NCBI GenBank assembly: GCA_050084515.1
Contig: CM114271.1
Span: 13,206,001 to 13,270,000, forward strand
Direction of reading: 5' to 3'
DNA: 64,000 nt
Origin: Blasia pusilla
Lineage: Eukaryota
The position numbers were made by a program, and so were the translations under genes. Positions 1-44,479 of this stretch are shown piece after piece; the stretch's first letter is position 1; each line of letters starts with the position of its first letter. The notes under the pieces are model-generated. The model ran no database searches. It was given only the letters and a program-made list of their open reading frames with translations, and was not told the origin of the DNA.

Positions 1-469
1 TACCCAGATCCTCCATGCTAAATGAAAAGCAACTCCTATAACTCCTGAGGAACTGATGTATCCGCCGCGGCTCTCCTCTTGTCAACTTAGGGCCCATATC
101 TAGCTCCCAAGTCTCCATCATGACTACGGTAGGACTCTCCGGTGTAGGTATTGATGGTTGCTATGGTGCAACCCCGTCTTGAACAACAACACTCAACCGC
201 TCTCCTACAGTCAAGTGCAAACTCTGATCTCCTCCACATACAGTGCCCAAAACCATGCTCGATGATGTGGCTATAATCTCCTGGCGTACCTGCAAAACAT
301 CCCAAGAAGTCCAAGGGTGTCTCTCTCGATCTTCCCTAGTGTGTAGATCTCCTCGGGTCTCATTCCTAGCCATTGCCTCCAACGTCTTGGTAGGCATGGG
401 GCTCACCAACACAACCGATGTGATGTGTCGCGATCTCATATGGCGCTGCTCAGCCACTCCCAAGTTGAG

Positions 470-820
470 GATCCATGTCAAGCACTTCAGGTCCATTACC
501 TGACCCAAGACATGGCATCGTGATGCCTCTCACACTGACGGTACTGCCATCACTCCTGTGGGAAATCCCATCGCTCGCTCTCTCTCGTCGGCGTTGGGCT
601 CCACCAACCATTGAACCTGGTCATCCCAAACCAAGCCAGGACCGGCCTCCTTATATGCATAGGAAGACACTCCACTCTTATAGGAAACTCCGAGAGGGAG
701 ACTCACAAACGTGGGCAAGGCTGCCCGTGGCCTGCCTACCCTGTTGACCACAATCAACAATGGTCGATCATCATGCCTCACTGCCTGTGATCAACGACTT
801 GGATGCATAATGGAATCCAA
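470..820 (-). pseudogene. C-terminal remnant (target-recognition region, motifs IX-X) of DNMT3-like methyltransferase
   Basis: RAALPTFVS...VEPNADERERAMGFPTGVMAVPSV...LGQVMDL matches 37940-38270; upstream motifs deleted. Confidence 0.85.
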
Positions 821-949
821 TGCCAAGTGATGGCACTGCTAAATGCTGCTAAGGTCGCCACCTCTCCTGGCCGTCGCTCGATCACTGCATCTGGAAATCG
901 AATGGGTAATGAGCTTAGGCGCCCATCACCTAACTGCCATCCTGGTCTG

Positions 950-1382
950 TAGGACGTTCACTCCTCCCAATAATCCAGGGAAAATCCCATCGGGTATAAC
1001 ACCGCTCCACCAACCAAGACGTCGTAGGACTCTGCATCAATCACTATCGCCTTGGCTCGCACCACGGACTCATCTGTAGGATGTCGCGGTTGAATCCTCA
1101 CCACGACCTCCTATCGGGTGATATACTATGTGGTACTTCGCTCCACCCAAGGATGTCGTCAGATCCGAATGGACAACCCTCCACATCGGCTCTCGTCAAG
1201 CCCAATCCTCTGAATGACGCTTTCCCCAACATCAGGGGTTGCGCTCCTAAATCCAACAAGACGCGCTGCGGACTAAAAGCTCTACCTCCGGGACTCATCA
1301 ATTGGAAGACCTCTCCTCGGTTATCGAGCAACACAACACCAAGAGAAGCTATGGCATGCTCTATCACAGGTCTAGCGGGCAT
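950..1382 (-). pseudogene. Retroelement aspartic protease
   Basis: RVLLDLGAQPLMLGK, same as 36580-36630. Confidence 0.75.
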
Positions 1383-1849
1383 CTCGCAATCCTAGCGACC
1401 ATGACCGCCATGAATCTAACGTGGACGGCCCGACCATCCGCTCCAAGGGCAGATCCATCACCTCCTCTGCAATCATCTCTGAAGGTGATGCAAGAACTGA
1501 AGTGTAGCGGCCAGCCGAAAAGCCTCGGCGGGCGAACCCCCCAATGTCATAACATCGGAAGCAGAAAATTAAGGAGCGCGGAAAACAATTGTGGCCGCCC
1601 CAACAACGTGCTCGACACATGCCCACTCCTGAACAATACGAGTCGTTGCACTTGCTTCTCCCATTGCCCTCCGTGCCTGCATACCAACAATATCACCAAC
1701 TCTCCAGGAACTCTGATCAGGACCCATCAATGGCGTCCTCATTGCCTCGGACAACGTGAAAGACTGAGGAAGCCTAGTCTGTTTCCTCACTTTCCCTCGC
1801 TATGGATCCAACTCTACGGCTGCTCCACGCCTTACAACTGCGGGTGCCT

Positions 1850-3238
1850 CCATTTGGGCAACCCCGCACATCCAACCAAGATCCTCCATATCTGCGGCTG
1901 CTCCATATGATGTCGATGCCACAGATCCGCATCGGTAATCGAATGCCATAGCGGCAACCGCTCCTCGTAGCTTATGTATCCGAGCAGACCATCCCGGCCC
2001 TCACGTCCGGCGTCTCCCTTGACGCTGGCGTCTAGATGGTAGGACTCTAGCTCCTCCACGGAAGCTCCACCACCGTGTCGGGCAACTCCATCTCCTTGTC
2101 CCCCAACTTGACCACTTGATGCACGATCTCTAGGCCCACCCGGACTGGCTACTCGCTCTAGTGCCCTCTCTGGCCCTCGGTTCGGACGTAACTCAGGATG
2201 TCAACTAAAACACCTAGCGCGTGTATGACCATACCTCTGAAAATAGTCCCATTGATAACCTCCTGGTGTAGCACCATCTCCTCCTCCATGCTAAGGCACA
2301 CGTCCATGACCTTGACGAGTGCAATTGCGCTGATGATGCGATCCACCACATGACCAACAAGTAATAGTAGGCGATTCTTCTTTGAGCCACATATGAAGGC
2401 GCAGGTCTCTGTGGCACGGCCTCCTGGTATCCTCCTTGAGCTCATGGTGCCACAGTCGACCTATCTCGGAGTCCACGTTGTTGCACAGGTGGTGCACACA
2501 GTCGCGAAAGCTCTCGCCCAATACCCATGGTGACTATGCTCTCCTCCGCCATATTTCCGTCAATATTCTCGGGGGTCCTAAAAACATCTCTCAACGTAGG
2601 GGAGGTGTTCATAAGAAGCACCCTCTCCACTTTGTGTCCGCAGGTCCGGTTCAAAGATCGCGTACCATGACTGGATAGCCTGAGCCTCTGTCGTCCCCTG
2701 AGTGACGTTGATCAACCAACGCAAGTGAGTGTAAGCCTCACTTCAACTCTCACCCGGACGCCTCTCGAAGTCGTGGATGCTCCGAAACTTCTATGTCCGT
2801 ACCCCTTGGTAGCTGGCCCTCAACTCAGCAAAGAACTCAACCACGGGGTTGAACCTGGGACACCCGACTACACGGTGTAACTGCTCCCGTGCGAGTGACC
2901 CATCCTAAAACGTCACTAGTGGAAGAGGAAGTAGCCTCTCCTCACTCCTTCTCCTCATTTGGGAACGGCTCCATCCATGACATATAATGTGGGTCATAGT
3001 AGAGCCTCCACGCCTCAATCTCACATGCTCATCTCTGAGAGAACTCATGGTAATCATCCGTGGGTGCCCCCTCTAAATGCTCAAATATACCATTCCATAT
3101 TGTAAACGGGTTAAACTCTCTAGAGTTCCTTGCCCGTTGGGAGTCGCACCAGCTCCTAAACTGTGCTATAAAATCGTGCAACTCAATCGTACCTACAGCA
3201 CCTGAAAACCTACGCGGTCCTCTACCCCGGTCGTCCAT
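1850..3238 (-). pseudogene. gag: gag of Gypsy-DNMT copy 1
   Basis: MDDRGRGPRRFSG...ELHDFIAQFRSWCD; zinc knuckle TITCWSCGGSHHQRNC. Confidence 0.85.
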
Positions 3239-5110
3239 CTCGTACGCACAACTCGTAGGACCACTCACAATGTGTGGCGATGTGCTCAAAAATCCTCTAC
3301 ACCCTCCCCCTCGTCTGACGATGACACAGAAAGAGATCGAGGTGGTCCCTCAGGTGGAGACCCTCGGAACCTCACGCCACTCCGCGTAAAACCTCAAGAG
3401 CTACTCTCGTGTTCACCACCTCGCCTCTCAAAGTCCCAAATGGATGCCGTGATGACCCTCGTGCCCCTCTCACCCGATCACTCTCGCCTCGCGAGTTATC
3501 CCTCAATCACTCATCCCAAACATGCAGCACTTGATCTACACTCTCCCTCCCCGAGACGTGTAACGTGCGGCAACAAGCGGCGTGGTGCGGCAAATCAACC
3601 ACGCTATCATCTCATCGAAAACCTGCCCTCAGCTCCGGACATCCCACACAGGTCTATGTCCCCTAAACCACATACATAAATGATGCTCTCAGCATCCACA
3701 CACCCAATATCCCCAAATAAACTACCCAAATCCTAGAATCCCTCACACGTGCAGGGTAAAGGACCATAATGGGTAACGTGAACATATATCGAGATCGCTC
3801 CTCAACAACTGCAAAATTCAACCCCAACTCGGTCTTGGAGATAACTCCTCCAATCAACAAGTCATACTCCTCCTGTACTAAGCTACTCAAAACTCCTCGA
3901 TAGACTATGTGGTTCCAACGGAACGATGCGGAATTGCAGGCCGCACGGAATGACTATGAAGGACATGGCCCTTGATGGTGGGATGCGGCACTCGGCGGCA
4001 TACCCTCCTCAATCAACAATAAACCCACACTCTGCTCCACAATGACGGTGCAGCTTCGCGATCGAGACGTTGCGATGCGGCCACAAGCGGCATAGCGCGG
4101 CAATCGACGGCACGCTGCGGCTACGGGCGTCACGGCACGGTACTGGATCGTCATCAAGCGGCTACCAATCACAACATAGCAGCATGAAATCAAAACTCAA
4201 ACACCATAATCAAAGGTCATCTGCCATCACTGGTTGATGACGAAACTGCGATGAAGGTGGCGGCCAAAACATAGTACGTGGTGGCGACGCAAGTCATAGA
4301 ATCAACGAATGTCATGGAAGATCCTCCACTCCGTAACAGCGGAAATGGCAACCAAAGGGTGGACAACGGACGGTGGACCGTTGATGGTGACGGCCGATCG
4401 GTGAGAGTGACCGTTGACCGTTGATGGTGATGTTGACCGTTGATGGTGACGGTTGACCGTCGATGGTGACGGTTGATCATCGATGGTGAAGGTTGACTGT
4501 CGACGGCAGACTATTGATGGTGACTATGACGGCAACGGCTGCCGCCGCCGTGGCGGCTGATTTAGGGTTTGAACAATTTAACCCTTAAAATCGCCTAGCA
4601 ATGGCAATTTTGCAAGATTGCTCATAACTTTTTTCTCATAATTCCAAATTTCGCACTGTTTATTGCACAACCTGCACAACTTCACGATCTACGACAAAGT
4701 CAAAAATATTTAGAATCGGAAATTCAAGTAAAAATTGACAGGGATTGTCGTTAGGCCCAATATCTCTTTCTCCTATATAAAATTTGGCATCGCTTCCGTG
4801 CTGATTTCTCCCCAAAAAAAATGTAAAACCTATAAAAATACATATCAGCAAGCTACATTGTGCTCCCGAGAGCACTGGCATGGGGCAACCCGCCCCCATA
4901 ATCAATCTCTATCAGAAATTGGGCAACCCTTCCGCTCGCCACTCTTCCACACAAAAAATCAGCAAATGCAAAGAACAATCAAAGTACCCCTTGCTCTGGT
5001 GAGCACTATCATGAGCCGTTGAACAGGGAACACGGTCCCCAATTTGCAAAAATAGCGAGTGACCAGCGAGCTCCCCCATGAAACTCTCTCACTCTCTCAT
5101 TCTCTCTTTG

Positions 5111-5624
5111 TAAAGTAAGATCCAATCTTTCTCTACACCATCTCACACCATAGCTCTCAAAGGTGTGCACTCTCTCTCATGTCAAACCAAACCCACTCTC
5201 TTAATGAAAGGCTTGGGTGAAACTCACAAGGCAAGCAAGACCATAGCTCCGCCGCCTCATGCCAAGAGGTTCAACAAAGAGAGAATGAGCTTTCAAGCTC
5301 TCTCCCTTGGAGGTATATCCCTTCCCTCTCCCAAGCCCTCTCAACGGTAACCTATGCTCGCAGGTCACCTCCTTGGCTATTGACCTATTGTAGCGGGTCA
5401 AGGGACACTTCTTAAAGTGGAAAGTCAACTATCCCTAACATGGAAACTTACCCAAAATAGTAATTTTCTCTATATGGCTCCAAATGAGCCGAAACGAAGG
5501 GGAAACCTTCTCTCTCTGGTTTCCCGGGGCTTGAACATGTCATCCTCGACTTCTTGGGCTTGTCCTCCACTACTCGTGCAAACACTTTGCTAGATCCCAT
5601 TGATCTATCCTAACAGTCGTGACA
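5111..5624 (-). repeat. Terminal repeat A of Gypsy-DNMT copy 1
   Basis: Homologous to 32289-32764 and 41998-42512; not followed by segment B. Confidence 0.88.
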
Positions 5625-16390: not shown

Positions 16391-19300
16391 AGAGAGAGAG
16401 AAAGAGACTGTACTCATTAAGTAGTGCCTGTTGTAGCCTTGTGACCATAGACCCCGCGCCTTGGTTGGACGGTGCTTGAGACTGGGATGGGTGTAGAGAG
16501 AGAAGCAAGTGAAGAAGGTACCATATGAGAGGAGGGAGACACTCTCATATAGTGTGAGTGCTAACCAAACAACTTGTTTGTGCGGAGCTTCCAAGTGTCA
16601 ACCAAGAAACTCTTCACCACACAATCTACTTTACCTGATTGGGATCCCCAATAGACATTACTTACCAGTGCAGTAGCTTTGGGAAATGAATCAAGGCTAT
16701 TGAATGTGTTGAACAATTCTGGTGCTACCAGCTTAGCAATATCAGCATATGCTCTTGCTCTATGTGTTGTGAATTTTGCGCACGAGACCAAGGAATGACT
16801 AGAGGTTTCGTCCCCATTGTCACACAAGGCGCAAGAATTTAGTTGTGTTCCCATCCTGCTTTTCTTATGGTTCAAGGGGATTGCCCCGTCTTGAACTTGA
16901 ACTTGAGCCGGGTTCCCAAGAAAGGGTTCCCGCAAATAGTTCTTGATTCGCCCTCTCGGGATATACCGTCAAAAGAGAGAGGTCGAGACATTTTTGTGGC
17001 TTCCTCCATCTTTATTCTGCTTTGTGAGCGTTTGCCCACTTTGGTTTGGTTATGGTATCCACGAATGCTTTCTTATCTTGCTCCCCTTTGTTCAGGCCCC
17101 GGGAGCTTGGATGCTTGCACAACCTCTTGAACCTTTTTCGCCCAAGATTTGGCTTGCTTTACGGGTCTTCTTTGGGTCAGGTTTTCCCCATCACCTCTTT
17201 AGGATAGCGATGGGAGTCCATTGTCTCCAGCTGCCTCCGCCATTTCAACTTGGCGATGTCACGTCTATCCTCCAAGGGTTCCACACCTAGTTCGATCTCA
17301 CACCAACGCGGGTTGTTCGTGATGAAGTTGACATCATACCGAAACGCCTTGAGTTGCACGACTTCAAGCCTATCCCTTTGTTTGGTGTTGGCATCCCACA
17401 CTGCTACCCGTATTCCAGCGAGGACAAATGGTATGCAAAATGACAGAGCGCTTTACTTACGATGTGATATCTCGGCATCAGAGGAATCGGGACCAGACCG
17501 TTCACCTTCTTGTGGCCTTTCTCATTAGTCTTCTTGATGTGTGCATCCCACATGCAATCTTCCGAGAATTCTATGCCCAGATAGGTGTAGGTAGCCACAC
17601 GGGGGATCTCTTGGTCATCCTAGTACCACTGTTGGTCTTGGTCCTCCTCCTTGCCATTGAAAATCATCACACCGCACTTCAGTACATTTGCCTCCATGCC
17701 CCACATGTCACACCAGATTTTGGTCAGGGAGATCATCTCTTGGAGTTTCTCTCCTGTTTCCTCGAGGCCACCAAAGTCATCAACAAACATGAGGGAAACA
17801 ATAGAGTTGTTGCCCACCCGTATGCCTAGTCCACTATCCTCCATTTCTTCCAATAGGGAATTCACGAAAATGTTGAAGAGGGTGGGGGAGAGCGGGCATC
17901 CTTGACCCACTCCTTGCTTGATGTCGAATGTCCCACTCTTTTGGCCATTCACTAGAACTCTACTCCTTGTGTTCTGGTACATCTTCTCCACCACCCTCCA
18001 TATTTTCCCTCTCAGCCCCGCCTTCCACAGGCTATAAGAAAGTCCGTCACGCCATACAGTGTCGTATGCCTTCTTGAGGTCCAAGAAGAAGCAATAGGTG
18101 GGTTTCCCCTCTTTTTTCCTACCCAGGATGATCTGACTGAAGGTGAAGATGTGGTCTACGCATCCTCGGGCTTGCCAGAAGCCAGCCTGGCCTTCCTTGA
18201 TGACAAAATTCTCCTCCAGGTACATAGAGATCCTATTGTCGAGTATCTGACGGAGGAGGAGCTTCCGACTACACTCAAGCAATGTAATACCCTGTAGTTT
18301 CCACGGTCTTCTCGCTCACCCTTCTTGAAGAGATTCACGATGACTCCCATCCGCCATCTTTGTGGGATGACTTACGCCCCTTGAGACCAGGTTGAAGAGA
18401 CTCACTAGAGAACGAGCCATAGCAAAGATCGCCATACTTCACAAGCTCATTCACAAGCTCATCACCACCGCCTGCTTTGTGGTTCACAAGTTCTTTGATC
18501 GCTGCTCCCACCTCAGCCAGGGAGAACCAATCATTATATGGGTTGCCCAGCTCAACCTCATCATCTACCTTCTCCCGTTGTATCTTAACAAAATCCTCCA
18601 CCACCCTCTCAAGTTACGCTCTTCAAGGGATGTCCGAGAAGGCTTCTGCCTAACTCCTTGTAATGGCCTTCCAACACATGTCGGATCTGTTTAGCTGTGG
18701 TCACCATTCCACCATCTTTTCTCTTCAAGGCCTTTACGTCGTTTCTGTCCCTGGCCTTGCTCAATTTCTGCACTTCCATCCATAACTTTTTCTGATTCTT
18801 AGTGAAATTCTCATTGATGGATGAGTATGTGGCTTGGTTCATTTTCTTCTTGTGCATGCGCACGAGAAGACGGGTTTCCTTGCGTAGGAACACATACTGT
18901 GCCCACAAGGATGCATCGTCCCTGGCTTTGGCACTTGTGACATACGCTTCCCTTTGTTTGGCAATGGCTGCCTTGAGTTCCAAGGACCACCATTTGACGG
19001 CTCTGCCGCATATTATCAATTTCCTGCCGACAGCAATCTCGGCGGCATCTGTCACTCCACGCTCCCATCATGCCAGCACCATGTCCACAGTTGTTCTTGT
19101 GAACCCAAAGGTCTTGACGGTAGATTCAATGAAAGTGTCAAATGCCAAGAGATTTTCTTCCAGCTTGCCAATGTACACCTTCTTTTTGCCCTCATCTTGG
19201 AAGTCCTCTATCCTCCATTTCTTGATCACCCTCTTCACTTTGGTTTGGTCGAGCATTTTAGCCTTTCTTTGCAACTCTGTCGGACTAATGAATGATCTGA

Positions 19301-30261: not shown

Positions 30262-32288
30262 TAAACTCATTAAGTAGTGCTTGTCGTAGCCTTGCTACCA
30301 TAGACCCCGGGCCCTGGTTGGACGGTGCTTGAGACTGGGATGGGTGTAGAGAGAGAAGCAAGTGAAGAAGGTACCATATGAGAGGAGGGAGACACTCTCA
30401 TATAGTGTGAGTGCTAACCAAACAACGTGTTTGTGCGGAGCTTCCAAGTGTCAACCAAGAAACTCTTCACCACACAATCTACTTTACCTGATTGGGATCC
30501 CCAATAGACATTACTTACCAGTGAAGCAGCTTTGGGCAATGAATCAAGGCTATTGAATGTGTTGAAAAATTTTGGTGCTACCAGCTTAGCAATATCAGCA
30601 TATGCTCTTGCTCTGTGTGTTGTGAATTTTGCGCAGGAGACCAAGTAATGACTAGAGGTTTCGTCCCCATCGTCACACAAGGCGCAAGAGTTTAGTTGTG
30701 TTCCCATCCTGCTTTTCTTATGGTTCAAGTGGATTGCCCCCATCCTGAACTTGAACTTGAGCCGGGTTCCCAAGAAAGGGGTTCCCCGCAAACAGTTCTT
30801 CAGTTTTGCCTTCTCGGGATATACCATCAAGAGAGAGAGGTCAAACATTTTCATGGCTTCCTCCATGCTGTTCTACTGTGAGCGTTTGCCCACTACTTTG
30901 GTTATCCACGAATGCTTTCTCATCTTGCTCCCACAGTTTAGGCCTTGCTAGGAGCTTGGAAGCTTGCACAATCTCTTGAACCTTTTTCGTCCAAGATTTG
31001 GCCTGCTTTACGGGTCTTTTTTGGGTCCAGGTTTTCCCCATCATCTCTTTAGGATAGCGATGGGAGTCTATTGTCTCCAGATCCTCCGCCATTTTAACTT
31101 GGCAATATCACGTCTATCCTCCAAGTGTTTCAAACCTAGTTCTGATCTCACACCAACTCGGGCTGTTCGTGATGAGGTTGACATCATACCCCGAAACGCC
31201 TTCAGCTGTATAGCTTCAAGCCTCTCCCTTGGTTTGGTGTTGGCATCCCACACTGCTGCCCCGTATTCCAGCGAGGGACAAATGGTATGCAAAATGACAG
31301 AGCGCTTTACTTCTTATGTGATATCCCGGCAGTGTAGGAATCTAGACAGATCGTTCACCTTCTTGTGGCCTTTCTCAGTAGTCTTCTTGATGTGTGCATC
31401 CCATATGAAATATTCCGAGAATTCTATGCCCAGATAGGTGTATGTAGCCATACGGGGGATCTCTTGTTTGCCCTAGTACCACTGTTGGTCTTGGTCCTCC
31501 TCCTTGCCATTGAAAATCATCACACCGCACTTCAATACATTTGCCTTCATTTCCCACATGTCACACCAGATTTTGGTCAGGGAGATCATCTCTTGGAGTT
31601 TCTCTCCTATTTCCTCGAGGCCACCAAAGTCATCAGCAAACATTAGGGCAACAACAAAGTTGTTGTCTACCCATAGTCCACTATCCTCCATTTCTTCCAA
31701 TAGGAAATTCACGAAAATGTTGAAGAGAGTGGGGGAGAGCGGGCATCCTTGACCCATTCCTTGCTTGATGTCGAATGTCCCACTCTTTTGGCCATTCACC
31801 AGAACTCTACTCCTTGTGTTCTGGTACATCTTCTCCACCACCCTCCATATTTTCCCTCTCAGCCCCGCCTTCCACAAGCTATAAGATAGCCCGTCACGCC
31901 ATACAGTGTCATATGCCTTCTTGAGGTCCAAGAAGAAGCAATAGGTGGATTTCCCCTCTTTCTTCCTACCCTAGATAATTTGACTAAAGGTGAAGATGTG
32001 ATCCATGCATCCTCGGGCTTGCCTGGCCCTCCTTGATGACAGAATTCTCCTCCAAGTACACAGAGATCCTATTGTTGAGTATACGGCAAAGGAGCTTCCC
32101 GACTACACTCAACAATGTAATACCCCTGTAGTTTCTAGGGTCTTCTCGCTCACCCTTCTTGAAGAGGTTCACGATGATTCCCACCCGCCATCTTTGTGGG
32201 ATGACTTTTGCCTACTAGATCAGATTGAAGAGACTCACTAGAGAACGAGCCATAGCAGCATCACCATACTTCAACATCTCATTCACAA

Positions 32289-32764
32289 TGTCACGTCCTT
32301 TAGAATAGATCGGTGAGATCTAGTAGAGCGTCTTCAAGAGTAGTGGAGGACAGGCCTAGGAGGTCAAGGATGACCTACTGAGGCCTCGGGAAACCTAAGA
32401 GAGCAGGTTTCCCCTTCGTTTTGGCTCATTTGGAGCCATATTGAGGAACTTACTATTTTAGGTAAGTACCATTTTGAGTATATGATCACCTTTCTATTTT
32501 TGTTAAGTGGCCCTTGACCTCCTACATCAGGTCAAGAGCCGAAGAGGTGACTTGGGAGAATAGGTTACCATGGAGAGAGCTTGAGAGCTCATTCTCTCTT
32601 TGTTGAACCTCTTGGCATGAGGCGGCGGAGCTATGGTCCCTTGCCTTGTGAGTGTAACCCAAGCCTTTCATTAGGGGAGTGGGTTTGGTTTGACATGAGA
32701 GATAGTGCACACCTTTGAGAGCTATGGTGTGAGATTATGTAGAGAGAGATTGGATCGTACTTTA
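32289..32764 (+). repeat. Terminal repeat A1
   Basis: Near-identical to 41998-42512 apart from a ~39-bp deletion. Confidence 0.93.
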
Positions 32765-33379
32765 CAAAGAGAGAATGAGAGAATGAGAGAATGAGAGAAT
32801 GCGAGAATGAGAGAGTGAGATAGTGAGAGAGCTTCATGGGGGAGCTCGCTGGTCACTCGCTGTTTTTGCAGGTTGGGGACCGTGTTCCCCGTTCAACGGC
32901 TCATGGGAGTGCTCATCGGAGCAAGGGTTGCTTGGATTGTTCCTTGCATTAATTTGCCGATTTTTCGTGTGGAAGAGTGGCGCGCGGAAGCGCTACCCAA
33001 TTTCTAATAGGGATTGAGTATGGGGGCGGGTTGCCCCATGTCGGTGCTTTTGGGAGCACCATGTCGCTTGCTGATTTGCATTTTTACAGGTTTTACATTT
33101 TTGTTGGGAGGAATCAGCGCGGAAGCTTTGCCGAATGTTGGGTAGAAGAAAGAGACATTGGGCTTTACGACAGTCCCCGTCAGTGTTTACTGGAATCTCC
33201 GATTTCAAATTTTTTTATGTTGGCGTAGATCGTGAAGCTGTACATGCTGTGCAACAAACAATGTGCAATTTGGAGTTGCGAGCAAAACGTTATGGTCAAT
33301 CTTGCAAAACTGCCATTGCTAGGCGATTTTTAAGGTTAAATTGTGCAAACCCTAAACCAGCCGCCATACCGGCGGCGGC

Positions 33380-33500
33380 CGTCACCGACATAGTCACCGT
33401 CAACCATCAACGGTCAACCGTCACCAACGACGGTCAACCATCACCATCACCGTTCGTCCGTCACCATCAACGGTCAATCGTCACCGTCAATGGTCCACCG
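33380..33500 (+). repeat. Degenerate ~21-bp tandem repeats (CCGTCACCATCAACGGTCAA-like) in 5' UTR
   Basis: Direct observation; expanded version at 4370-4530 in copy 1. Confidence 0.75.
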
Positions 33501-34586
33501 TACGTTGTCCACCCTTGGTTGCCATTGCCGCCGCTGCGGAGTGGAGGGTCTTCCACAACGTTCGTTGATTCTCGGACTTGCGTCGCCATCACGTCATCAA
33601 CCTGTAATGGCATATGACCTCCTGTTATAGTGTTTGAGCTTTGATTTCCTGCTGCTATGTTGTGATTGGTAGCCGCTCAACGACGATCATGTGCCATGCC
33701 GTGACGCCCGTAGCCGCAACGCGTCGCCGATTGCCACACCGTGCCACTCATGGCCACACCACATCGTCTTGATCACAGAGCCGCTCCAGCATTGTGGAGC
33801 AGAGTGTGGGTTTATTGTTGATTGAGGAGGGTATGGGGCTAAATGCCGCATCCCATCATCGAGGGCCGTGCCGTTCGTAGCCGTTCCGTGCCGTCTGCAA
33901 CGCCGCACCGTTTCGCTGGAACTGCACCGTCTATCGAGGAGTTTTGAGTAACGTCAGTATGACTTGCTGATTGGAGGAGTTGTCTCCACGACCGAGTTGG
34001 GGTCGAGATTCGTAGTTGTTGAGGAGCGACATCGACATGTGTTCAAGTTACCCATTCTGGTCCTTTACCCTGCACGTGTGAGGGATTCTGGGATTCGGGT
34101 AGTTTATTTGAGGATATTGGGTGTGTGGATGCTGAGAGCATCATTTATGTATGTGATTTAGGGGACATAGACCTGTATGGGATGTCCAGAGTTGAGGGTA
34201 GGTTGTCGATGAGATGATAGCCTGGTCAATTTGCCGCACCACGCCGCTTATTGCCGCACATTACATGTCTCGGGGAAGGAGAGTGTAGATCGAGTGCCGC
34301 ATGTTTGGGATGAGTGATTGAGGGATTACTCGCGAGGCAAGAGTGATCGGGTGAGAAAGGCACGAGGGTCATCACGGCGTCCGTTCGGGACTTTGAGAGG
34401 CGAGGTGGTAAACCTGAGAGTAGCTCTAGAGGTTTTACGCGGAGTGGCGTGAGGTTCCGAGGGTCTTCACTTCAGGGACTACCTCGACCTCCTTCTGTGT
34501 CATCGTCAGACAAGGGGGAGGGTGTAGAGGAATTTGTGAGCACATCTCCACACATTGTGAGTGGTCCTACCAGTTAGGCGTACGAG

Positions 34587-35990
34587 ATGGACGATTGGGG
34601 TAGAGGACCGCATAGGTTTTCAGGTGGAGTAGGTACGATTGAGTTGCACGATTTCATAGCAGAGTTTAGGAGTTGGTGCGACTCCCAGCGGGCCAGGAAC
34701 TCTAGAGAGTTCAACCTGTTTACAGCATGGAACGATATGTTCCAGCATTTAGAGGGGGCATCCATGGACGATTACCATGAGTTTTCCCACATATATGCCC
34801 AGGAGATTGAGGCATGGCAACTCTACTACGACCCACACTATATGTCATGGACGGAGCCATTCCCAGATGAGGAGGAGGAGTCAGGAGAGGCTACTTCCTC
34901 TTCCACTAGTGATGTTTTAGGAGGGGTCACTCGCACTGGAGGAGTTGCACCGTCTAGTCGGGTTCGTCCCAGGTTCAACCTCGTGGTTGAGTTCTTTGCT
35001 GAGTTGAGGGCAAGCTAGCAAGGGGTATAGACGGAAAAGTTGCGGAGCATCCACAACTTCCAAAGGCGCCCGTGTGAGAGTTTACGTGAGGCTTACACTC
35101 GCTTGCGTCGGTTGATCAACGTCACTCAGGGGGTGATAGAGGCTCAGGCTATCCACTCATGGTACGCGATGCTGGACCAGACCCTACGGCCATGGGTGCA
35201 GGAGGGGGTACTTCTTATGATCACCTCCCCAACGTTGAGAGATGTTTTTAGGACCGCCGAGAACATTGAGCGCAACATGGCGGAGGAGAGCGTAGCCACC
35301 AGGGATTATGGGCGAGAGCAGTCGCGATTGGCTACACCACCTATGCAGCAACGTGGACTCCAAGATAGGTCAACTGTGGCACCACGAGCTCAGGGAGGAT
35401 ACCGGGAGCCCGTCGCACAGAGACTTGCGCCTTCATATGCGGCTCAACAGCAGCCGCCTACTATTACTTGTTGGTCATATGGTGGAGCCCATCATCAGCG
35501 CCATTGCACTCGTGAGGGTCATGGACGTATGCCTGAGCATGGAGGAGGAGATGGTGCTGCACCAAGAGGTTATCAGTGTGACTATTGTCAAAGGTATGGT
35601 CATACACGGGCCAGGTGTTTCAGTTTACATCCTGAGTTACGTTTGGACTGAGGGCCAAAGAGGACACTAGAGCGAGTAGCCGGTCCGAGTGGGCTACAGA
35701 TCGTGCACCAGGTGGTCCTGTTGGGGGACGAGGAGCTGGAGTTGCTCGACATGGTGGTGGAGCTGCCCGTGGAGGAGGTAGAGTACCACCACCTAGATGC
35801 GCCGAGGGAGACGCCGGATGTGAGGCTGGAATGGCTGCTCACATACAGCAGCTAGAGGAGTAGATTGCCGCTATGGCATTGAGGTTACCCGATGCCGGAT
35901 CCGTGGCATCGACATCATATGGAGCAGCTAAAGATCTACATGATCCTGGTTGGATGTGCGGGGTTGTTGAGATGGAGGCCGCCGCAGTTG
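34587..35990 (+). pseudogene. gag: gag with two CCHC knuckles
   Basis: FQRRPCESLREAYTRLRRL; TITCWSYGGAHHQRHC; YQCDYCQRYGHTRARC. Confidence 0.88.
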
Positions 35991-36519
35991 TGACGCGTGG
36001 AGCAGCCGTAGAGTTGGATCCATAGCGAGGGGAAGCCAGAAAACAAACTAGGCTTCCTCAGTCTTTCACTTTGTTTGAAGCGATGAGGACCCCATCGATG
36101 GGTCCTCATCAAAGTTCCTTAAGAGTTGGTGATGTTGTTGGTGTGCAGGCACGGAGGGTGATGGGAGAAGCGAGTACGACGACTCCTATTGTTGATGCTC
36201 ATGAGGGGCATGTGTTGACCACATTGTTGGGGGCGGCCACCATTGTGTACCGCACTCCTTTATTTTCTGCTTCCGATGTTATGACGTTGGGGGGTACGCC
36301 CGCCGAGGCTCTTCAGCTGGCCGCGTCACTTTGTGAGCCCGGAGTTGGAGTTCCTGCATCACGTTCAGAGGTGATTGCAGAGGAGGTAATCGACTTGCCC
36401 TTGGAGCGGATGCTCGGACTGTCCAAGTCAGATTCATGGCAGGCTGCGGCTGCTAGAATGGCGGAGATGCCCGCTAGACCCGCGATAGAGCGTGCCATGG
36501 CTTCTCCTGGTGTTGTGTT

Positions 36520-36900
36520 GCTGGATAACCGAGGAGAGGTCTTCTTGTTGGTACGTCCGGGAGGTAGAGCTTTTAGTCCGCAACGCGTCTTGTTGGACTT
36601 AGGAGCGCAACCCCTGATGTTGGGGAAAGCGTAATTCAGAGGATTGGGCTTGACGAGAGCCGATGTGGAGCGTTGTCCATTCCGGATACAGACATTCTTG
36701 GGTGGAGCGAGTACCACACAATATATCACCCGACAAGAGGTCGTGGTGAGGATTCGCCCGGGATATCCTACAGATGAGTCCATGGTGCGCGCCAAGGCGA
36801 TAGTGATTGATGCAGAGTCCTACGACGTCTTGGTTGGTGGAGCAGTGTTATACCCGATGGGTTTTTCCCTGGATTACTGGGAGGAGTCAGCGTCTATAGA
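36520..36900 (+). pseudogene. Aspartic protease
   Basis: RVLLDLGAQPLMLG ... YDVLVG. Confidence 0.8.
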
Positions 36901-37308
36901 CCAAGATGGCAGGTAGGTGATGGGTGCCTTAGCTCATTACCCGTTTGATTCACAGGTGCAGTGATCGAGCAACGGCCAGAAGAGATGGCGACCTTAGCAG
37001 CATTTACCAGTGCCATCACTTGGCCAAGTGATTTGATTGAGGGACATGTCCATGCAGAGGATACTCTTGTTCCTGACATTTCTATGGAGAGGAGTATTAT
37101 GGTAGCTGCATCATTCCGTGGAGGAGAGGTGCCGTTGTGAGGCTCGACTTAGGAGCTTCAACGATTGGCAGATGAGCACGTGCAGACCACGTGGAGCGAA
37201 GCGTTTGCACCAGAGCGTGACAGGTCTGAGGAACTCGAGGTAGCAAGGAGTGCTACAATGACACCCTTGGATACCACACCCATTATGTGGTGTATCCCGG
37301 GGGAGGGT

Positions 37309-38270
37309 ATTCGAGTGTTAGATCCCTTTGGAGGGATTAGCACCGGGTTAGCTGCTGTTTTGCAGACATGAGTGCGAGTACAACAGTACCTATATGTGGA
37401 GAGTGATGATGTTGCAAGGCGCGTCTCACTATGACATGTGGCGCAGTTATGCCTACGTTGTCCCGACTTATTGTCTGCGTCCGCAGTACATGGGTACTAG
37501 AGTTCCCTACCGAGGGATATTTCGTTGTTGGGGGCGCAAGACTTAGAGCGGGTAGGGACCATTGATTTGGTCATTTCCGGTTGGCCATGTCAGGGCCAAT
37601 CAAGTGCTGGACGAGGCAACGGGTTGGCTGACACTCGGTCCATGTTATTTTGGGAGATGTTGAGGGTCTTACGGCAGTTGCAGGAGCATCTGTCTCGTTC
37701 TCCAGCCTACATTCTGGAGAATGTGCCGATCTTAGGAGGCACGCACCTGATGAGCACTCATCACGAGTGGTGACGAGTGCTCATCAGGTGCGTGCCTAGA
37801 TTGGCCTAGCAGTGTTCTTGGATGCGGCGAGTGTAGGTTCTAGAGTCCATCGCATGCGTCTATGGTGGAACAACTTGGTGCCCCATGCGGTGTTACGCAG
37901 GGCGTATGCAAGAGTGGAGCGCCCCTCCCATTTATTAGTGGATTCCATTCTCGGTCCAAGTCGTCAATCACAGGCAGTGAGGCACGATGATCGACCACCG
38001 TTGACTGTGGTCAAAAGGGTAGGCAGGCCGCGGGCAGCCTTGCCCACGTTTGTGAGTTTTCCCGCTTCCTATGCATACAAGGAGGCTGGTCCTGGCTTGG
38101 TTTGGGATGACCAGGTTCAGCGGTTGGTGGAGCCCAACGCCCATGAGAGAGAGCGAGCGATGGGATTTCCCATAGGAGTGACGGCAGTACCGTCAGTGTC
38201 AGAGGCATCACGACGCCATGTCTTGGGTTAGGCGATGGACCTGAACTGCTTGACATGGATCCTCAGCTTG
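37309..38270 (+). pseudogene. DNMT3-like C5 cytosine DNA methyltransferase domain within pol
   Basis: Motif I IRVLDPFGGISTG, II YLYVE, III RDI, IV DLVISGWPCQG, VI YILENV, VIII LDAASVGSRVHRMRLWWNNL, IX ERERAMGFP, X RRHVLG*AM, in canonical order. Confidence 0.93.
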
Positions 38271-38612
38271 GGAGTGGCTGAGCAACGTCGTATGAGATGG
38301 CGACAGATCACAACGGTTGCGTTGGTGAGCCCCATGCCTACCGAGACGGTGGAGGCAGCGGCTGGGGGCGAGACCCGAGGAGATCTACGCACCAGGGGAG
38401 ATCGGGAGAGACACCCTTGGACTTCTTGGGATATTTTGCAGGTATGCAAGGAGATGATAGCCACAACATCGAGCATGGTTTCGGGCACAACACGTGGAGG
38501 AGATAAGAGTTTGCAGTTGGCTGCAGGAAAGCGAACGAGTGTTGTTGTTTGAGACAGGGTTGCACCATAGCAACCACCGATACCCGCGCCGGGGAGTCCT
38601 ACCGTAGTCACG

Positions 38613-39400
38613 ATGGAGACTTGGGAGTCAGATATGGGCCCTAAGTTGAAACGAGGAGAGTGGCGCCGAATACATCAGTTCCTCAGGAGTTATAGGAGCT
38701 ACTTTGCATTTAGCATGGAGGATTTGGGTACGCTGAAGGGCCCGGGGATCCGCATTGAGTTGTCGAGTGATACGACGATCTTCCGAAAACCCTACAAGTA
38801 TAGAGATATGGAGAGGGCTCTGATTCAGAGTAGGAGCCAGGACTTGGTCAGAGCAGAACTAGTGGAGATGTCGCATGGGGAGTATGCATTTGCCACTGTC
38901 ATGCCCTCCAAGAAGGATGTGCATGGCAACTGGACGGATAGGCGCATGTGTGGGGATTACCGACCTATCAATCGGCAGACGAAGTCCGATAGGTATGCCA
39001 TGCCCACCCCTGAGGAGATCTTTGATGCGATTGGTCACGCAAAGGTCTTCAATTCATTGGATTTGCGAGCCGGATACCATCAGCTGCCTATCAGATTGGA
39101 GGACATGCAGAAGACGGCATTTTGGGGCATCGATCCTCACGGGAAGGATTTTTTGTACCAGTGGCGGTTCTTACCATTTGGGTTAAAGAACGCCCCGGCT
39201 GAGTTTCAAAGGGTCATGGATAGGATCTTGGCTGGTCTGGATTTTTCTAGGTGTTATATTGATGACATCGTAGTCTTTAGCGCCACGGTTGAGGAGCATG
39301 AGCGACATCTAGAGGAGGTGTTTCGACGATTGCAATAAATGGGCTGAAGCTACATCCAGGCAAGTGCAAGTTCTTCTACGACCAGATTGAGTACTTGGGT
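38613..39400 (+). pseudogene. pol: Gypsy reverse transcriptase
   Basis: RMCGDYRPIN, LDLRAGYHQ, PFGLKNAPAEFQ, YIDDIVVFS. Confidence 0.96.
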
Positions 39401-40066
39401 CATACGATATACCCTGGGGGCCTTGGTGTTCAACAAACGAAGGTAGAGGCTATCTCATGCATTCCACGCCCTACAGATGTGAGCCGTGTTCGCGCATTCA
39501 TGGGATTGGCGAACTTCTATCGGCGATACGTCAAGGGATTCAGTTTGATTGCAAAGCCATTGACCTTGCTGACCAAGGTGGATCACGAGTGGCACTGGGG
39601 GGATGAGCAGGAGCAAGCATTTCAGTTGCTCAAGGACAGGTTGACGTCTGCGCCCATCTTGAGGAGACCGATCAGGGGGCGTCCTTTCCAGTTGCACACA
39701 GATTGGAGCATGTTGGGGCTTGGAGCGGTGCTCACCCAGCATGATGATGAGGGTAGAGAGTTCGTGGTGGCTTACGCTAGCCGCTCGAACAACGCTGCAG
39801 AGGCAAAGTACAGCTCGTATGAGGGTGAGTGCTTCGCTACGGTGTGGACTGTCACGCATTTCAGGTGTTACTTATTCGGCAACCCCTTTACCATCATCAT
39901 TGATCATCAACCCCTGAAGTGGTTGATGGAGTCCGAGAAGCTTATAGGGAAGCTTGCAAGATGGGCTCTGTTGTTGCAAGAGTGTGATTTTCAAGTGGTA
40001 CATAGATCTGGGACGCTCAACCAAGATGCAGATGGGTTGAGGCGTAATCCATACTCGAGTCAGTGA
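39395..40066 (+). pseudogene. pol: RT connection and RNase H
   Basis: QLHTDWSMLGLGAVL, VAYASR, YSSYEGE, DHQPLKWL, ADGL. Confidence 0.94.
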
Positions 40067-40429
40067 GATGCGACTAGAGCTCTATGGCATGGAGAGAGTG
40101 ATGAGGAGTCGGTGCCAGGATGGCACGCGTCGGTCTATTTAGGCATGTTGGCTATGGAGAGCCAGAGTGTGGAGACTTCGATGGCGAGGTCTAGTGGAGA
40201 GTCCTTGGATCTCGAGGCCAGTGAGGAGACGACAAGTGGTAGAGATATTCATGATGATGGAGTAGTCTTGGAGTACCTTCGTACTGGCAGCGTTGCAAGC
40301 ACAATGGGTGCTAGAGAGCAAGATCGGATCCTACAACGGGCCAGACGGTTCCGTTGGGAGGGGACACATGTTTTGAGGGTTTGGGAGGATGGCAGAGTAC
40401 GCGTAGTGCCGCATCCTTCACATAGAGCA

Positions 40430-41500
40430 CGACTAGTGCAACATGCCCACCAGGAGTTGGGTCACTTTCGGGTGAAGCGGACGTACAGCTTGCTCCAGAT
40501 TCAGTATTGGTGGCGAGGCATGCAGACTGACATTCAGCAGTTTGTTGCCAATTGCATGGTGTGTGATCAGGTCCGAGCATCGTTCAATGCTCCAACTCCA
40601 CAGTTGCATCCATTACCAATCATGGGCTTAGGGTATAGATGGAGTTTGGATTTTGCAGGACCTTTGCCTTTGACAGAGCGTCACAGTCGTTATGTTTTGG
40701 TGATGGTCGAGCACTTCTCAAAGTGGATCGAGTTGGTTGCATTGCTTGAAAAAGCGAGTGAGGGAGTAGCTTATGCCTTCCTTGATAGAGTGCTGAGTCA
40801 TTATGGCGCACCGGCTGAGGTGTTGACAAACCAGGGTACCGAGTTTCAGGGTGAGTTCCAAGCCTTGTGTGATCTAGCGTTGATCGACCACCGCGACGAC
40901 CGGCGAGATCATCCTAAGGCGGATGGATTGGCGGAGAGAGTTGTGCAGACGGTGAAGAGGGGTTTACGCAAGTATGGATTGCAGAGAGGTCACCTAGGAG
41001 ACTAGGACCTTCCATTTTCCATGGTTGGCGATGGGATACAGATTCAGCAAGCAGGCGTCTTTTTCACCGTACTTGCTACTTTATGGCCGAGAGCCAGATT
41101 TACCTACGGCCATTTACCATCGTCGAGATGCTGGTGAGGTGCTGGACCTTGATGACCCAGATGTATGGGTGCGAGCATGTTCTCAGAGGGCTAAGTTATT
41201 TCAGTGAGTGATGCCCATGGCGTTCGAGAACTTGGCGATTCCGCAACATCGGGATACGTTGAGGTATGCGACTATTCGGGGTGGTGGTTATCGACCAACT
41301 ATCCAGAGGTTTCATCAGGGAGATTATGTCTACTTGCAGCAGATGGCACCAACGACGTTGGATGTGACTGCAGGGCGCACTATCTTGAGAGTGCGTGACT
41401 TTTTGCCATCCGGTGTTCTCTTGCTCGAGGGACGCGATGGTATGGTATGGAAGGACCATGTGCATAATTGTGCACCATGTCACCTTCCTAACATTGATAT
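40430..41500 (+). pseudogene. pol: DDE integrase (HHCC + rve core)
   Basis: HQELGH...YWW...CMVC; WSLDFAGPL; VLTNQGTEF; ADGLAERVVQTVK. Confidence 0.94.
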
Positions 41501-41543
41501 TACATTGGATCCGAGCTTAGCAATAGTTTTTGCAGGCTTGCGT

Positions 41544-41681
41544 TGTATGTTGTGTGGTTACGCCGTAGTGCGCCACGATGCGATCTGTGATGGTTGTTCG
41601 AGAGGTTGGCATATGGCATGTCTGACACCACCTCTCACTAGGGTTCCTAGGGGACGATGGATGTGTCCCAGATGTACATAG
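41544..41681 (+). pseudogene. PHD finger at integrase C-terminus
   Basis: C4HC3: CMLC...[28 protein letters not shown]. Confidence 0.92.
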
Positions 41682-41858
41682 AGGAGATACTAGGTAAATT
41701 TCGATCCCGACTTTTTCTCTGACATGGATGACAGGAAGGCGACTAACGATGGGGCCACATGAGCACCAGGCCTTCTTGCTCTTAGCGTCCGAGAGATGTA
41801 TGTCATGGTAGGTAGGGATAGATGGCTATCTGGAGTTAGAGGGACCTAACCACCATCT

Positions 41859-41867
41859 AGGGGGGCG
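41859..41867 (+). other. Putative polypurine tract
   Basis: AGGGGGGCG immediately before repeat B1. Confidence 0.5.
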
Positions 41868-41995
41868 ATTGGAGATATTTTGGTACTTCTTGTCTTGTTG
41901 TTTGGATGCCATGAGTTAGCATAGGATCGTGCGTGTTTTTGTGTGTGTTCAGTGATAGCGATGTATGTTGTGTAGCGATGTGTATGCGCACGACA
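41868..41995 (+). repeat. Repeat B1
   Basis: ATTGGAGAT...GCGCACGACA, repeated at 42512-42624. Confidence 0.92.
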
Positions 41996-41997
41996 AC

Positions 41998-42512
41998 TGT
42001 CACGTCTTTTAGAATAGATCGGTGAGATCTAGTAGAGCGTCTTCAAGAGTAGTGGAGGACATGCCTAGGTGGTTGAGGATGACCTGCTGAGGCCCCGGGA
42101 AACCTGAGAGAGTAGGTTTCCCCTTTGTTTTGGCTCATTTGGAGCCATATTGAGGAACTTGCTATTTTAGGTAAGTACCATTTTGAGTATATGATCAACT
42201 TTCTATTTTTGTTAAGTGGCCCTTGACCTCCTACATCAGGTCAAGAGCCAAAGAGGTGACTTGGGAGAATAGGTTACCATGGAGAGGACTTGGGAGAGGG
42301 AGGGTATATATCCCAAAAGAGAGAGAGCTTGAGAGCTCATTCTCTCTTTGTTGAACCTCTTGGCATGAGGCGGCGGAGCTATGGCCCCTTGCCTTGTGAG
42401 TGTAACCCAAGCCTCTCATTAGGAGAGTGGGTTTGGTTTGACATGAGAGAGAGTGCACACCTTTGAGAGCTATGGTGTGAGATTGTGTAGAGAGAGATTG
42501 GATCTTACTTTA
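41998..42512 (+). repeat. Repeat A2 (contains TATATA at ~42305)
   Basis: TGTCACGTC...CTTACTTTA, copy of A1. Confidence 0.93.
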
Positions 42513-42624
42513 TTGGAGATATATTTTGGTACTTCTTGTCTCGTTGTTTGGATGCCATGAGTTAGCATGGGATCGTGCGTGTTTGTGTGTGTATTCAGTG
42601 ATAGCGATGTGTATGCGCACGACA
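42512..42624 (+). repeat. Repeat B2 (element 3' terminus)
   Basis: Copy of B1, followed by ACAA and resumption of LINE sequence. Confidence 0.92.
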
Positions 42625-44479
42625 ACAAGCTCATCACCACCGCCTGTTTTGTGGTTCACAAGTTCTTTGATCGTTGCTCCCACCTTAGCTAGGGAGAACC
42701 AATCGTTATATGGGTTGCCCAGCTCAACCTCATCATCTACCTTCTCCCGTTGTATCTTAACAAAATCCTCCACTACCCTCTCAAAGTTCTGCTCTTCAAG
42801 GGATATCCGAGCGGGCTTCCTGCCTAACTCCTTGTAATAGTCTTCCAACACATGTCGGATCTGTTTAGCCGTGGTCACCATTCCATCGTCTTTTCTCTTC
42901 AAGGCCTTTACGTCGTTTTTGTCTCTGGCCTTGCTCAATTTCTGCACTTCCATCCAGAACTTCTTCTAATTCTCAGTGAAATTCTCATTGATGGATGAGT
43001 ATGTCACTTGGTTCAATTTCTTCTTGTGCATGCGCACGAGAAGACGGGTTTCCTTGCGTAGGGCCACATACTCTGCCCACAAGGATGCATCGTCCCTTGC
43101 TTTGGCACTTGTTACATACGCTTCCATTCGTTTGGCAATGGCTGCCTTGAGTTCCAAGGATCACCATTTGACGGCTCTGCCGCATATTTTCAATTTCTTG
43201 CCGACAGCAATCTCGGCGGCATCTATCACTCCACGCTCCCACCATGCCAGCACCATGTCCACAGTTGCTCTTGTGAACCCAAAGGTCTTGACGGTAGATG
43301 CAATGAAAGTGTCAAATGCCAAGAGATTTTCTTCGAGCTTGCCAATGTACACCTTCTTGTTGCCCTCATCTTGGAAGTCCTCTATCCTCCATTTCTTAAT
43401 CACTCTCTTCACTGGTTTGGTCGAGCATTTTAGCCTTTGCTGCAACTCTGTCCAAACCAATGAATGATCTGATCTTCCAATGTCTGTCGCATCCATTGTG
43501 ATCTTCCCACTACGTGTGTAGAGTTCCTCATCCACAGCTATGTAGTCCACAATGGAGCTTTCATTCTCCTTGAAGTTGACCCTAGTCGAAGCCGGGGAAC
43601 CCACCTTATGCCTATCATTCAATGCCATCACTTGAAGTTCCCTCAACATCGTGATCAGCCGTGTGCCATTGCCATTCACTCTCACATCTCCAAACATCCC
43701 AATCTCCGCTTGGGAATCGGTGCCTTGCCCCACCTAGCTATTGAAGTCTCCCAACAAGACTATGTTTCCCTTTGTCAGGAACCCAAGGCAATCCGTTTTC
43801 ACACTATGCTGATGATCTCACACCTGTGCTGATGATCTCACACCTGTCCACCCCTGTGCTGATGATCTCACACCTGTCCACCATGAAGTCTCTGATGAAG
43901 AACCCGACACCCTTCATACCTCTGTTGTTGTCCGCCTGGGTGCTCCACATCTTTCCAAACCATGCATAGTGCAAGACATGGGGTATCTCCATTAACTTGG
44001 TTTCCCAAGTTTCGACCACCGCATATATGTATTTGATTTTTCAGCAAAACTTCAGCAACCTCAGTGCTTCATTGCATGGGTCAGTCCACAGAAGTTCTAG
44101 GTACCCAAACGGAGACCTGTCACTAAGTGGGTTGGGGGTCGGCGGGCACGCTTTTGGCGTCGGTGTGGCTGCTAGCGACATGGAACCTCTTCATGTGCAA
44201 GCTCTTCATCGCTGGTCCCTTGGAGAACACTAAAGACATTAGGTGTGTAGATCACCAACCGTTTTGTGGAGATGGGCCTTTCCTTCAAGCTGGAACCACC
44301 CTCGACTACCATAGCCCTCCAATTATAGGCACGTCTCAATTCTTGAGACACCAGTGGCCTCCTCTGCCCTTGATGGACACCTTGAAGATACATTGACGGC
44401 CATTCATCATCCGAGTAACTCCAGTAGTAGCGAGGAATTCAAAGCCCAAAGTTGCGCACATGATCTTAAACATTAAACA

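Follow-up and report, generated by a model that had tools for sequence, protein, structure and literature searches.

Split direct repeats on a DDE-integrase Ty3/Gypsy-type retrotransposon family represented in Blasia pusilla

Split direct repeats, in which a single 5′ repeat A is matched at the 3′ end by the permuted array B-A-B, are otherwise treated as a feature of retroelements that encode a tyrosine recombinase (PMC4157794, PMC7192593). How, then, does this layout come to stand on an element with a DDE integrase and the insertion marks of such an enzyme? The question is raised by a retroelement at positions 32289–42624 of a 64,000-nucleotide stretch of Blasia pusilla DNA (assembly GCA_050084515.1, contig CM114271.1, positions 13,206,001 to 13,270,000; hereafter the window). 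We favour, with a probability of roughly 55%, the view that it is a Ty3/Gypsy-type retrotransposon in which the repeat unit that reverse transcription produces is offset from the ends that the integrase uses, and whose complementary DNA (cDNA) ends are joined and re-opened before insertion.

A direct-repeat search combined with direct reading of the sequence placed A1, B1, the AC spacer, A2 and B2 exactly where a first-pass annotation, made from the sequence alone, had put them (Table 1). Two identical direct long terminal repeats (LTRs) at both ends are not what this element has: its 5′ end consists of A only and its 3′ end reads B-A-B, with TG at 32289 and CA at 42624 as the outer termini. 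A1 and A2 are 88.7% identical in a gapped alignment, or 95–97% identical over two ungapped blocks, and B1 and B2 are ~94% identical; base 42512 is assignable to A2 or B2 alike, hence their overlapping coordinates. A 39-bp stretch of A2 with the TATA-like box (42282–42320) is absent from A1 (compare 32573–32587), and the window copy has therefore probably lost its own promoter. In a second copy of the family in the window (copy 1, minus strand, 5624→1), A likewise passes directly into the same untranslated region (UTR) as in the window element, as the first pass had seen. An 8-mer resembling the B end just upstream of copy 1 was set aside as a chance match, with 243 of 500 shuffles scoring equally well.

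The insertion itself left a clear trace. Both 1-kb flanks map to one uninterrupted paralogous repeat (17435–18456 and 18453–19447), and the two matches overlap by exactly 4 bases. This empty paralogous site proves a 4-bp ACAA duplication beside TG..CA ends, in agreement with what the first pass had proposed. One contig in each of the DNA runs X1 and X2 also carried the joined empty form (32284→42625, with 4 shared letters), as did 48 RNA reads of X22 and 39 of X23. The host repeat of the element is multi-copy, encodes a reverse transcriptase on the minus strand (31473–31931 minus; 17435–19447), and is transcribed from both strands at similar depth.

We then scanned metagenome contigs with the window integrase, which yielded 80 loci at 50–81% identity, and used five full elements as the source of A, B, UTR-start and pre-B queries to annotate them. 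Pre-B/B/A/B 3′ ends occur in 17 of the 80 loci, corresponding to 12 unique sites once five same-flank pairs are removed; L050, of a lineage nearer to the window's, has a further B-A-B 3′ end beyond these 12 and the window itself. At the other end, all 17 unique 5′ ends (15 from the metagenome and two from the window) run from flank through A into the UTR, and neither B before A nor A-B-A was found at any of them (0/17). Twelve elements are full-length, five with the A..BAB and seven with the A..B arrangement. Perfect and differing 4-bp duplications flank nine of these twelve (ACAA, AAGG, TCTC, AATC, TACA, ATTA, TACA, TGTG and TTCA), while the remaining three show a 3/4 match, a 2/4 match, and a damaged 5′ tip with AATG five bases away. 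The A..BAB layout is a family trait and not a local accident, and the insertions of the family are independent, each with its own 4-bp duplication.

These counts bear directly on the simplest alternative, namely a local artefact, in which a conventional element with A+B LTRs has lost its 5′ B, or a tandem or nested insertion or a misassembly imitates the layout. The window holds only one complete copy, which is old and degenerate (longest stop-free frame, 312 aa), as such an origin would allow. Yet the layout recurs at the 12 further unique sites, in other assemblies, with flanks and duplications of their own, copy 1 and all 17 unique 5′ ends share one and the same A-to-UTR junction, and the same layout was independently described in Klebsormidium (PMC5890265). 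We therefore regard a local artefact as extremely improbable.

B-A-B is not the only 3′ end of the family, however. In 26 loci, or 21 unique sites, pre-B/B is followed directly by unrelated flank (the A-internal-B form). The expectation that the 3′ end is always B-A-B with independent duplications thus held with regard to the duplications and the recurrence of the layout, but not with regard to "always". Since the seven full A..B elements are all old (longest open frames of 125–344 aa), assembly collapse of identical repeats is an unlikely cause of this form. A-internal-B copies may have been made at integration or by later deletion between B1 and B2, both of which leave the same flanks and duplications. 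As a separate observation, L042 and L044 (8937–9272) contain a complete A inside the internal region, ~1 kb upstream of the integrase and with no B beside it, which may be a rearrangement or a nested fragment.

Table 1. Features of the window element, its empty site and the second family copy (window coordinates).
Feature	Position	Strand	Remarks
Target-site duplication, left copy	32285..32288	+	ACAA
A1, 5′ terminal repeat	32289..32764	+	TG start; without the 39-bp stretch of A2
Putative self-primer stretch in A1 (16 nt), putative 5′ end of R	32588..32603	+	Mismatch-free reverse complement of the sequence immediately following A1
Putative self-priming primer-binding site, from the last base of A1	32764..32779	+	Paired with 32588-32603 in both predicted folds (minimum-energy, centroid); z = -4.1
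8-bp tandem array, 7.8 copies	32769..32830	+	Extends the 3′ part of the primer site; DNA joints 32772/32778/32780->32822
Candidate gag-like frames, CCHC-type zinc knuckle near the end	34578..35651	+	Stop-broken; from translation; weak Pfam zinc-finger match
Probable aspartic protease region	36026..36916	+	D-L-G-A motif by eye; no Pfam match
C5 cytosine DNA methyltransferase in pol	37153..38231	+	Over shifted frames; PF00145 at 37501-37773, E 2e-12
Reverse transcriptase	38571..39338	+	PF00078, E 1e-21
RNase H	39302..40066	+	PF17917, PF17919
DDE integrase, H2C2 zinc-binding domain and rve core	40067..41005	+	PF17921, E 3e-16; PF00665, E 2e-9
C-terminal frame ending in PHD finger	41208..41681	+	PF00628, E 3e-7; PHD at 41544-41675
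Polypurine tract	41859..41867	+	A + six G + CG; abuts B1; conserved among related loci
B1	41868..41995	+	CA at end
2-nt spacer between B end and A start	41996..41997	+	AC; abutted integrase ends, CA-NN-TG
A2	41998..42512	+	TATA-like box 42305-42311; self-primer stretch 42336-42351
B2	42512..42624	+	CA at end; A2/B2 joint at 42511/42512
Target-site duplication, right copy	42625..42628	+	ACAA
Empty site	18453..18456	+	Same 4 bases in uninterrupted paralogous host repeat
Copy 1, same family	1..5624	-	A (5624->5111), then same primer site and UTR; runs off the window

The pol order of the coding region (RVT_1, RT_RNaseH, Integrase_H2C2, rve) fits Ty3/Gypsy, with the protease recognized by eye only. 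We found no Phage_integrase or other tyrosine-recombinase match in the six frames of the internal region (X at stops, E ≤ 0.01), although Pfam alone may miss a very divergent recombinase; together with the Pfam rve match, this supports the first-pass reading of an rve integrase without a visible tyrosine recombinase. The element shares further traits with conventional Ty3/Gypsy elements, namely the DDE integrase, TG..CA ends, a 4-bp duplication, a polypurine tract and a primer site beside the terminal repeat. It differs from them in lacking identical LTRs at both ends, and in having a [B-A] repeat and an [A..B] integration unit that are out of register.

Two signals define that repeat: because a polypurine tract precedes B and a primer site follows A, we take [B-A] to be the unit that reverse transcription would make. 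The tract of six G followed by CG directly precedes B1 in the window, in L050 and in 13 of the 13 class I loci listed; two degenerate loci have five or four G. On the other side, the sequence that follows A is perfectly complementary, in reverse orientation, to a stretch that lies ~177 nt before the A end and 25–31 nt behind the TATA-like box. The complement is 16 nt long in both window copies and 17 nt long in L010/L012, and the pair differs in sequence between the two lineages, with both sides changed together (covariation). Shorter complements of 8–12 nt were seen in 9 further loci, in 7 of the 9 at the same place in A. RNA folds from the self-primer stretch to the primer site pair both, in the minimum-energy as well as the centroid structure (z = −4.1 and −4.9; 0 of 200 shuffles as good). 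The exact 16–17-nt complement and its covariation between lineages indicate a putative Tf1-like self-priming. Priming by transfer RNA (tRNA) was set aside, as the window contains no tRNA genes and A is not followed by a TGG-type primer site.

Self-priming has been described in Tf1/sushi and in plant Tcn1 Gypsy elements (PMC6317226). As in those elements, a tRNA-type primer site is missing here and the bases after the 5′ repeat complement the predicted transcript start. Tf1/sushi and Tcn1 elements have ordinary identical LTRs and a chromodomain, whereas the window family combines permuted repeats with a PHD finger and a methyltransferase. Two further observations concern the primer region. A near copy of the primer-site sequence lies just upstream of the self-primer stretch (L012, 1836–1860; window, 42312–42351), and the first leader bases can also form a local hairpin with it, which may regulate priming. 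In addition, other genomic copies are 41–49 bases shorter at the tandem array (32769–32830).

RNA data add to this picture; the joints and loose ends from read mapping are the best-supported ones, listed ahead of a further 260 joints and 4520 loose ends, and A1 and A2 share reads. The lack of a joint from the B end to the UTR among those listed therefore carries no weight. The reads are of the sense strand, and 14 and 23 of them span the A→UTR junction; no run with RNA of the exact window copy was found among the sequencing runs. Loose RNA ends accumulate at 41868 (50 and 102 reads), where expressed relatives share pre-B and the polypurine tract and then continue into a different B; between subfamilies, B therefore changes more quickly than the sequence around it. 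A separate RNA-only joint (38735–39806) skips 1070 bases in the reverse transcriptase/RNase H region in 14 and 25 reads (X22 and X23). Its ends, AA..CA, are not intron-like and the joint is absent among the DNA joints listed. It may represent an expressed deletion derivative.

Integrase, in turn, appears to act on a different unit. The A start (TGTCA/TGTCAT...) and the B end (...GACA) form a 7-base imperfect inverted repeat, and within each [B-A] unit these ends abut as CA-NN-TG, where NN is always 2 nt (AC, GC, AT or GT). In L012, for example, the B1 end CATGACA is followed by GC and then by the A2 start TGTCATG, a near-palindrome. The 2-nt spacer recurs throughout the related loci. The first pass had likewise read the B1/A2 junction as the element's own 3′ end joined to its 5′ end. 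Foamy virus and HIV-1 integrases have been reported to cut the abutted LTR ends of two-LTR circles (PMC1180852, PMC1905944). By analogy with those reports, we propose that both strands are cut at CA in the near-palindromic junction. The retroviral junction is made by circularization and has 4 bases between CA and TG. In the window family, unlike in retroviral circles, CA-NN-TG has 2 bases and is built into each repeat unit, and a circle-type A/B joint is kept inside the insertion.

Starting from what the loci show directly (their anatomy, their joint sequences and their independent duplications), the following course of events may be proposed. Transcription would start behind the TATA-like box in A, and the first RNA bases would fold back onto the site right after A to prime the minus strand, as in Tf1, with the polypurine tract before B priming the plus strand. 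The ordinary product of reverse transcription would then be [B-A]-internal-[B-A]. Joining of its right end to its left end, either as a ligated two-repeat circle or through an end-to-end template switch by reverse transcriptase, would create the A2/B2 joint. The joined cDNA would be cut to either side of NN within the left [B-A] unit and inserted with a 4-bp duplication, giving A-internal-B-A-B; nicking after each CA, with the two nicks on opposite strands at a distance of 2 bases, would yield ends resembling processed integrase substrates. Cutting unjoined cDNA or a one-repeat circle at these positions would produce A-internal-B copies, unable to replicate, unless such copies stem from the later B1/B2 deletions. 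More speculatively, the right end of a linear cDNA might be extended by a short end-to-end template switch and integrase might take the outermost sites; unextended linear cDNA would likewise give A-internal-B.

The A2/B2 joint is central to this proposal. In three lineages it consists of the U5 end (the base before the primer site) followed by the bases after the tract's GGGGGGCG, which corresponds to the predicted right cDNA end placed against the predicted left one, and it has this canonical form at 10 of the 12 unique sites. The joint of L003 carries 1 extra tract-side base, and that of L020/L024 carries 2 extra tract bases and a 17-nt filler copying nearby U5. Variants of this kind are typical of freshly joined cDNA ends, as known from retroviral circle junctions, and those of the A2/B2 joint are what end-joining of cDNA ends gives. 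The filler itself (L020, 2669–2691; L024, 10837–10859) repeats an 11-nt string from U5, ~25 nt upstream, with four tract-end bases after it, and resembles a template-switch scar.

Several points weigh against joined and re-opened cDNA ends. No circle or joined intermediate was observed. Every copy examined is degenerate, with longest stop-free frames of 125–545 aa, and the metagenome contigs are short-read assemblies, in which some A-internal-B forms could be collapsed. A complement of at least 8 nt is missing in 6 of 19 entries. The one "begin" signal for a putative transcription start (7 molecules, at 32580) borders on the 39-bp deletion of A1 and may be an alignment artefact. The near-constancy of the joint is equally explained by an inherited joint. 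Moreover, RNA depth inside B2 amounts to 24 and 18 reads at 42519; some RNA may cross the A2/B2 joint, which could therefore be inherited and not remade in each cycle.

The last two points are also those that speak for a PAT/Ngaro-like route in which integrase has replaced the tyrosine recombinase. Here, the RNA would run from A1 to B2, the A2/B2 joint would be inherited via this RNA, and the B1-A2 stretch would bridge or template the restoration of incomplete cDNA ends into a circle, which would be opened at the B/A junction. Exactly this repeat layout is indeed seen in PAT and Ngaro, and in the Symbiodinium DIRS elements that carry a methyltransferase (PMC4157794, PMC5890265), and PAT-like, Ngaro and DIRS elements share with the window element both the order A1-internal-B1-A2-B2 and a B1/A2 junction in which the two ends of the element abut (PMC4157794, PMC7192593). 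They encode a tyrosine recombinase and no DDE integrase, however, whereas the window family has rve, TG..CA ends and 4-bp duplications. To our knowledge, insertions of the DIRS order carry no integrase-type target duplication, and tyrosine-recombinase elements have neither TG..CA ends nor 4-bp target duplications. The polypurine tract and the self-complementary primer site, exactly at the B start and the A end, correspond to an ordinary LTR-type layout, and the two aberrant joints with extra tract-derived bases fit fresh joining of plus-strand 5′ ends better than template copying. On balance, we consider the PAT/Ngaro-like route unlikely.

A further objection concerns symmetry. A symmetric two-repeat circle, opened at either CA-NN-TG, predicts a sister product, A-B-A-internal-B, at the same frequency as A-internal-B-A-B, and this mirror form is seen at 0 of the 17 unique 5′ ends, compared with 12 to 14 unique B-A-B 3′ ends. 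Selection after insertion fails to explain its absence, because A-B-A-internal-B would be no more harmful than A-internal-B. Some directional step is therefore missing from the model: unless the cut is directed, the joined form must be something other than a symmetric circle. The same observation counts against the strict form of the circle mechanism that the first-pass annotation had put forward, in which a ligated circle with two [B-A] units is obligatory and is opened at either CA-NN-TG without preference. In its favour, the A2/B2 joint resembles a circle junction, the CA-NN-TG near-palindrome suits a single integrase complex, and one-repeat circles cut alike would give the common A-internal-B form. 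What stands of that proposal is the permutation of two [B-A] units together with the joint, but the circle itself was not observed and its mirror product is missing, which leaves this exact version doubtful. In the joined-end scenario that we prefer, a circular intermediate would be one of two ways to join the ends.

Beyond the repeats, pol carries two additional domains. The methyltransferase domain sits between the protease region and the reverse transcriptase, and the PHD finger follows the integrase. A PDB sequence search with the methyltransferase returned bacterial C5 methylases, generic matches only and none specific to Dnmt3. The pair of methyltransferase and PHD finger is also found in many metagenome proteins related to the window pol. 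Among named proteins, the closest to the integrase come from liverworts and mosses: Riccia sorocarpa (73%) and Calypogeia fissa (68%), along with Sphagnum fallax (75%, covering 43% of the query), with identities to liverwort proteins of 66–73%, and a Klebsormidium nitens protein with PF00145, reverse transcriptase, RNase H and rve is 45% identical to the window integrase.

A distant relative of the family with the same layout is already in print. According to the legend of Fig. 4c in de Mendoza et al. (2018), KnitGypsy-Dnmt3 of Klebsormidium nitens combines DIRS-like A-coding-B-A-B repeats with Gypsy domains (PMC5890265). Like the window element, it thus has a C5 DNA methyltransferase in a Gypsy-type pol together with A..BAB repeats, and the bare layout on a Gypsy-DNMT element is not new. 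The relationship is distant (45% integrase identity versus 66–73% for the liverwort proteins), and the window element has a PHD finger, which the passages on KnitGypsy-Dnmt3 do not mention. These main-text passages also say nothing on target duplications or terminal bases, on a primer site or polypurine tract, or on an analysis of the joint, A-internal-B copies or a mechanism (PMC5890265). The literature searched yielded no other paper naming KnitGypsy-Dnmt3, and no mechanistic account of integrase-bearing Gypsy elements with split direct repeats, with subscription journals and supplements outside the search. As far as searched, it is new that the reverse-transcription repeat is offset from the integrase ends, that a putative self-priming site follows A, that the predicted cDNA ends meet in an end-to-end joint, that the duplications are independent, and that the A-internal-B form occurs while the mirror form is missing. 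The first-pass annotation, for its part, had contained neither the published Gypsy-DNMT layout nor the methyltransferase domain, the PHD finger, the self-priming site or the frequent A-internal-B copies.

For the classification of retroelements, the finding means that split direct repeats can accompany a DDE integrase together with TG..CA ends and target duplications, and the layout alone therefore cannot classify an element. LTR finders that expect two identical LTRs would mis-delimit such copies, with A1 and A2 taken as LTRs, B1 as internal sequence and B2 as flank. With their closest named relatives in liverworts and mosses, the elements described here extend the Klebsormidium report to land plants.

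The use of abutted or joined ends by integrase is an idea with roots in early circle-junction models of how retroviruses integrate. The family offers a natural system for asking whether integrase uses abutted internal ends and whether joined cDNA ends are productive, and its anatomy makes the mechanism testable. Going one step further, we tentatively suggest, at somewhat less than even odds, that these elements form a green-plant DDE-integrase clade in which the integrase ends have moved inside U3, an ordinary linear cDNA is no longer a productive substrate, joined cDNA ends are obligatory for replicating copies, which retain the A2/B2 joint within the insertion, and unjoined cDNA leads to dead A-internal-B insertions. 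If this is true, joined-end DNA, long held to be a dead end for retroviruses, would become an obligatory intermediate of a natural integrase-bearing family, and the PAT/Ngaro layout would have arisen here independently, by convergence.

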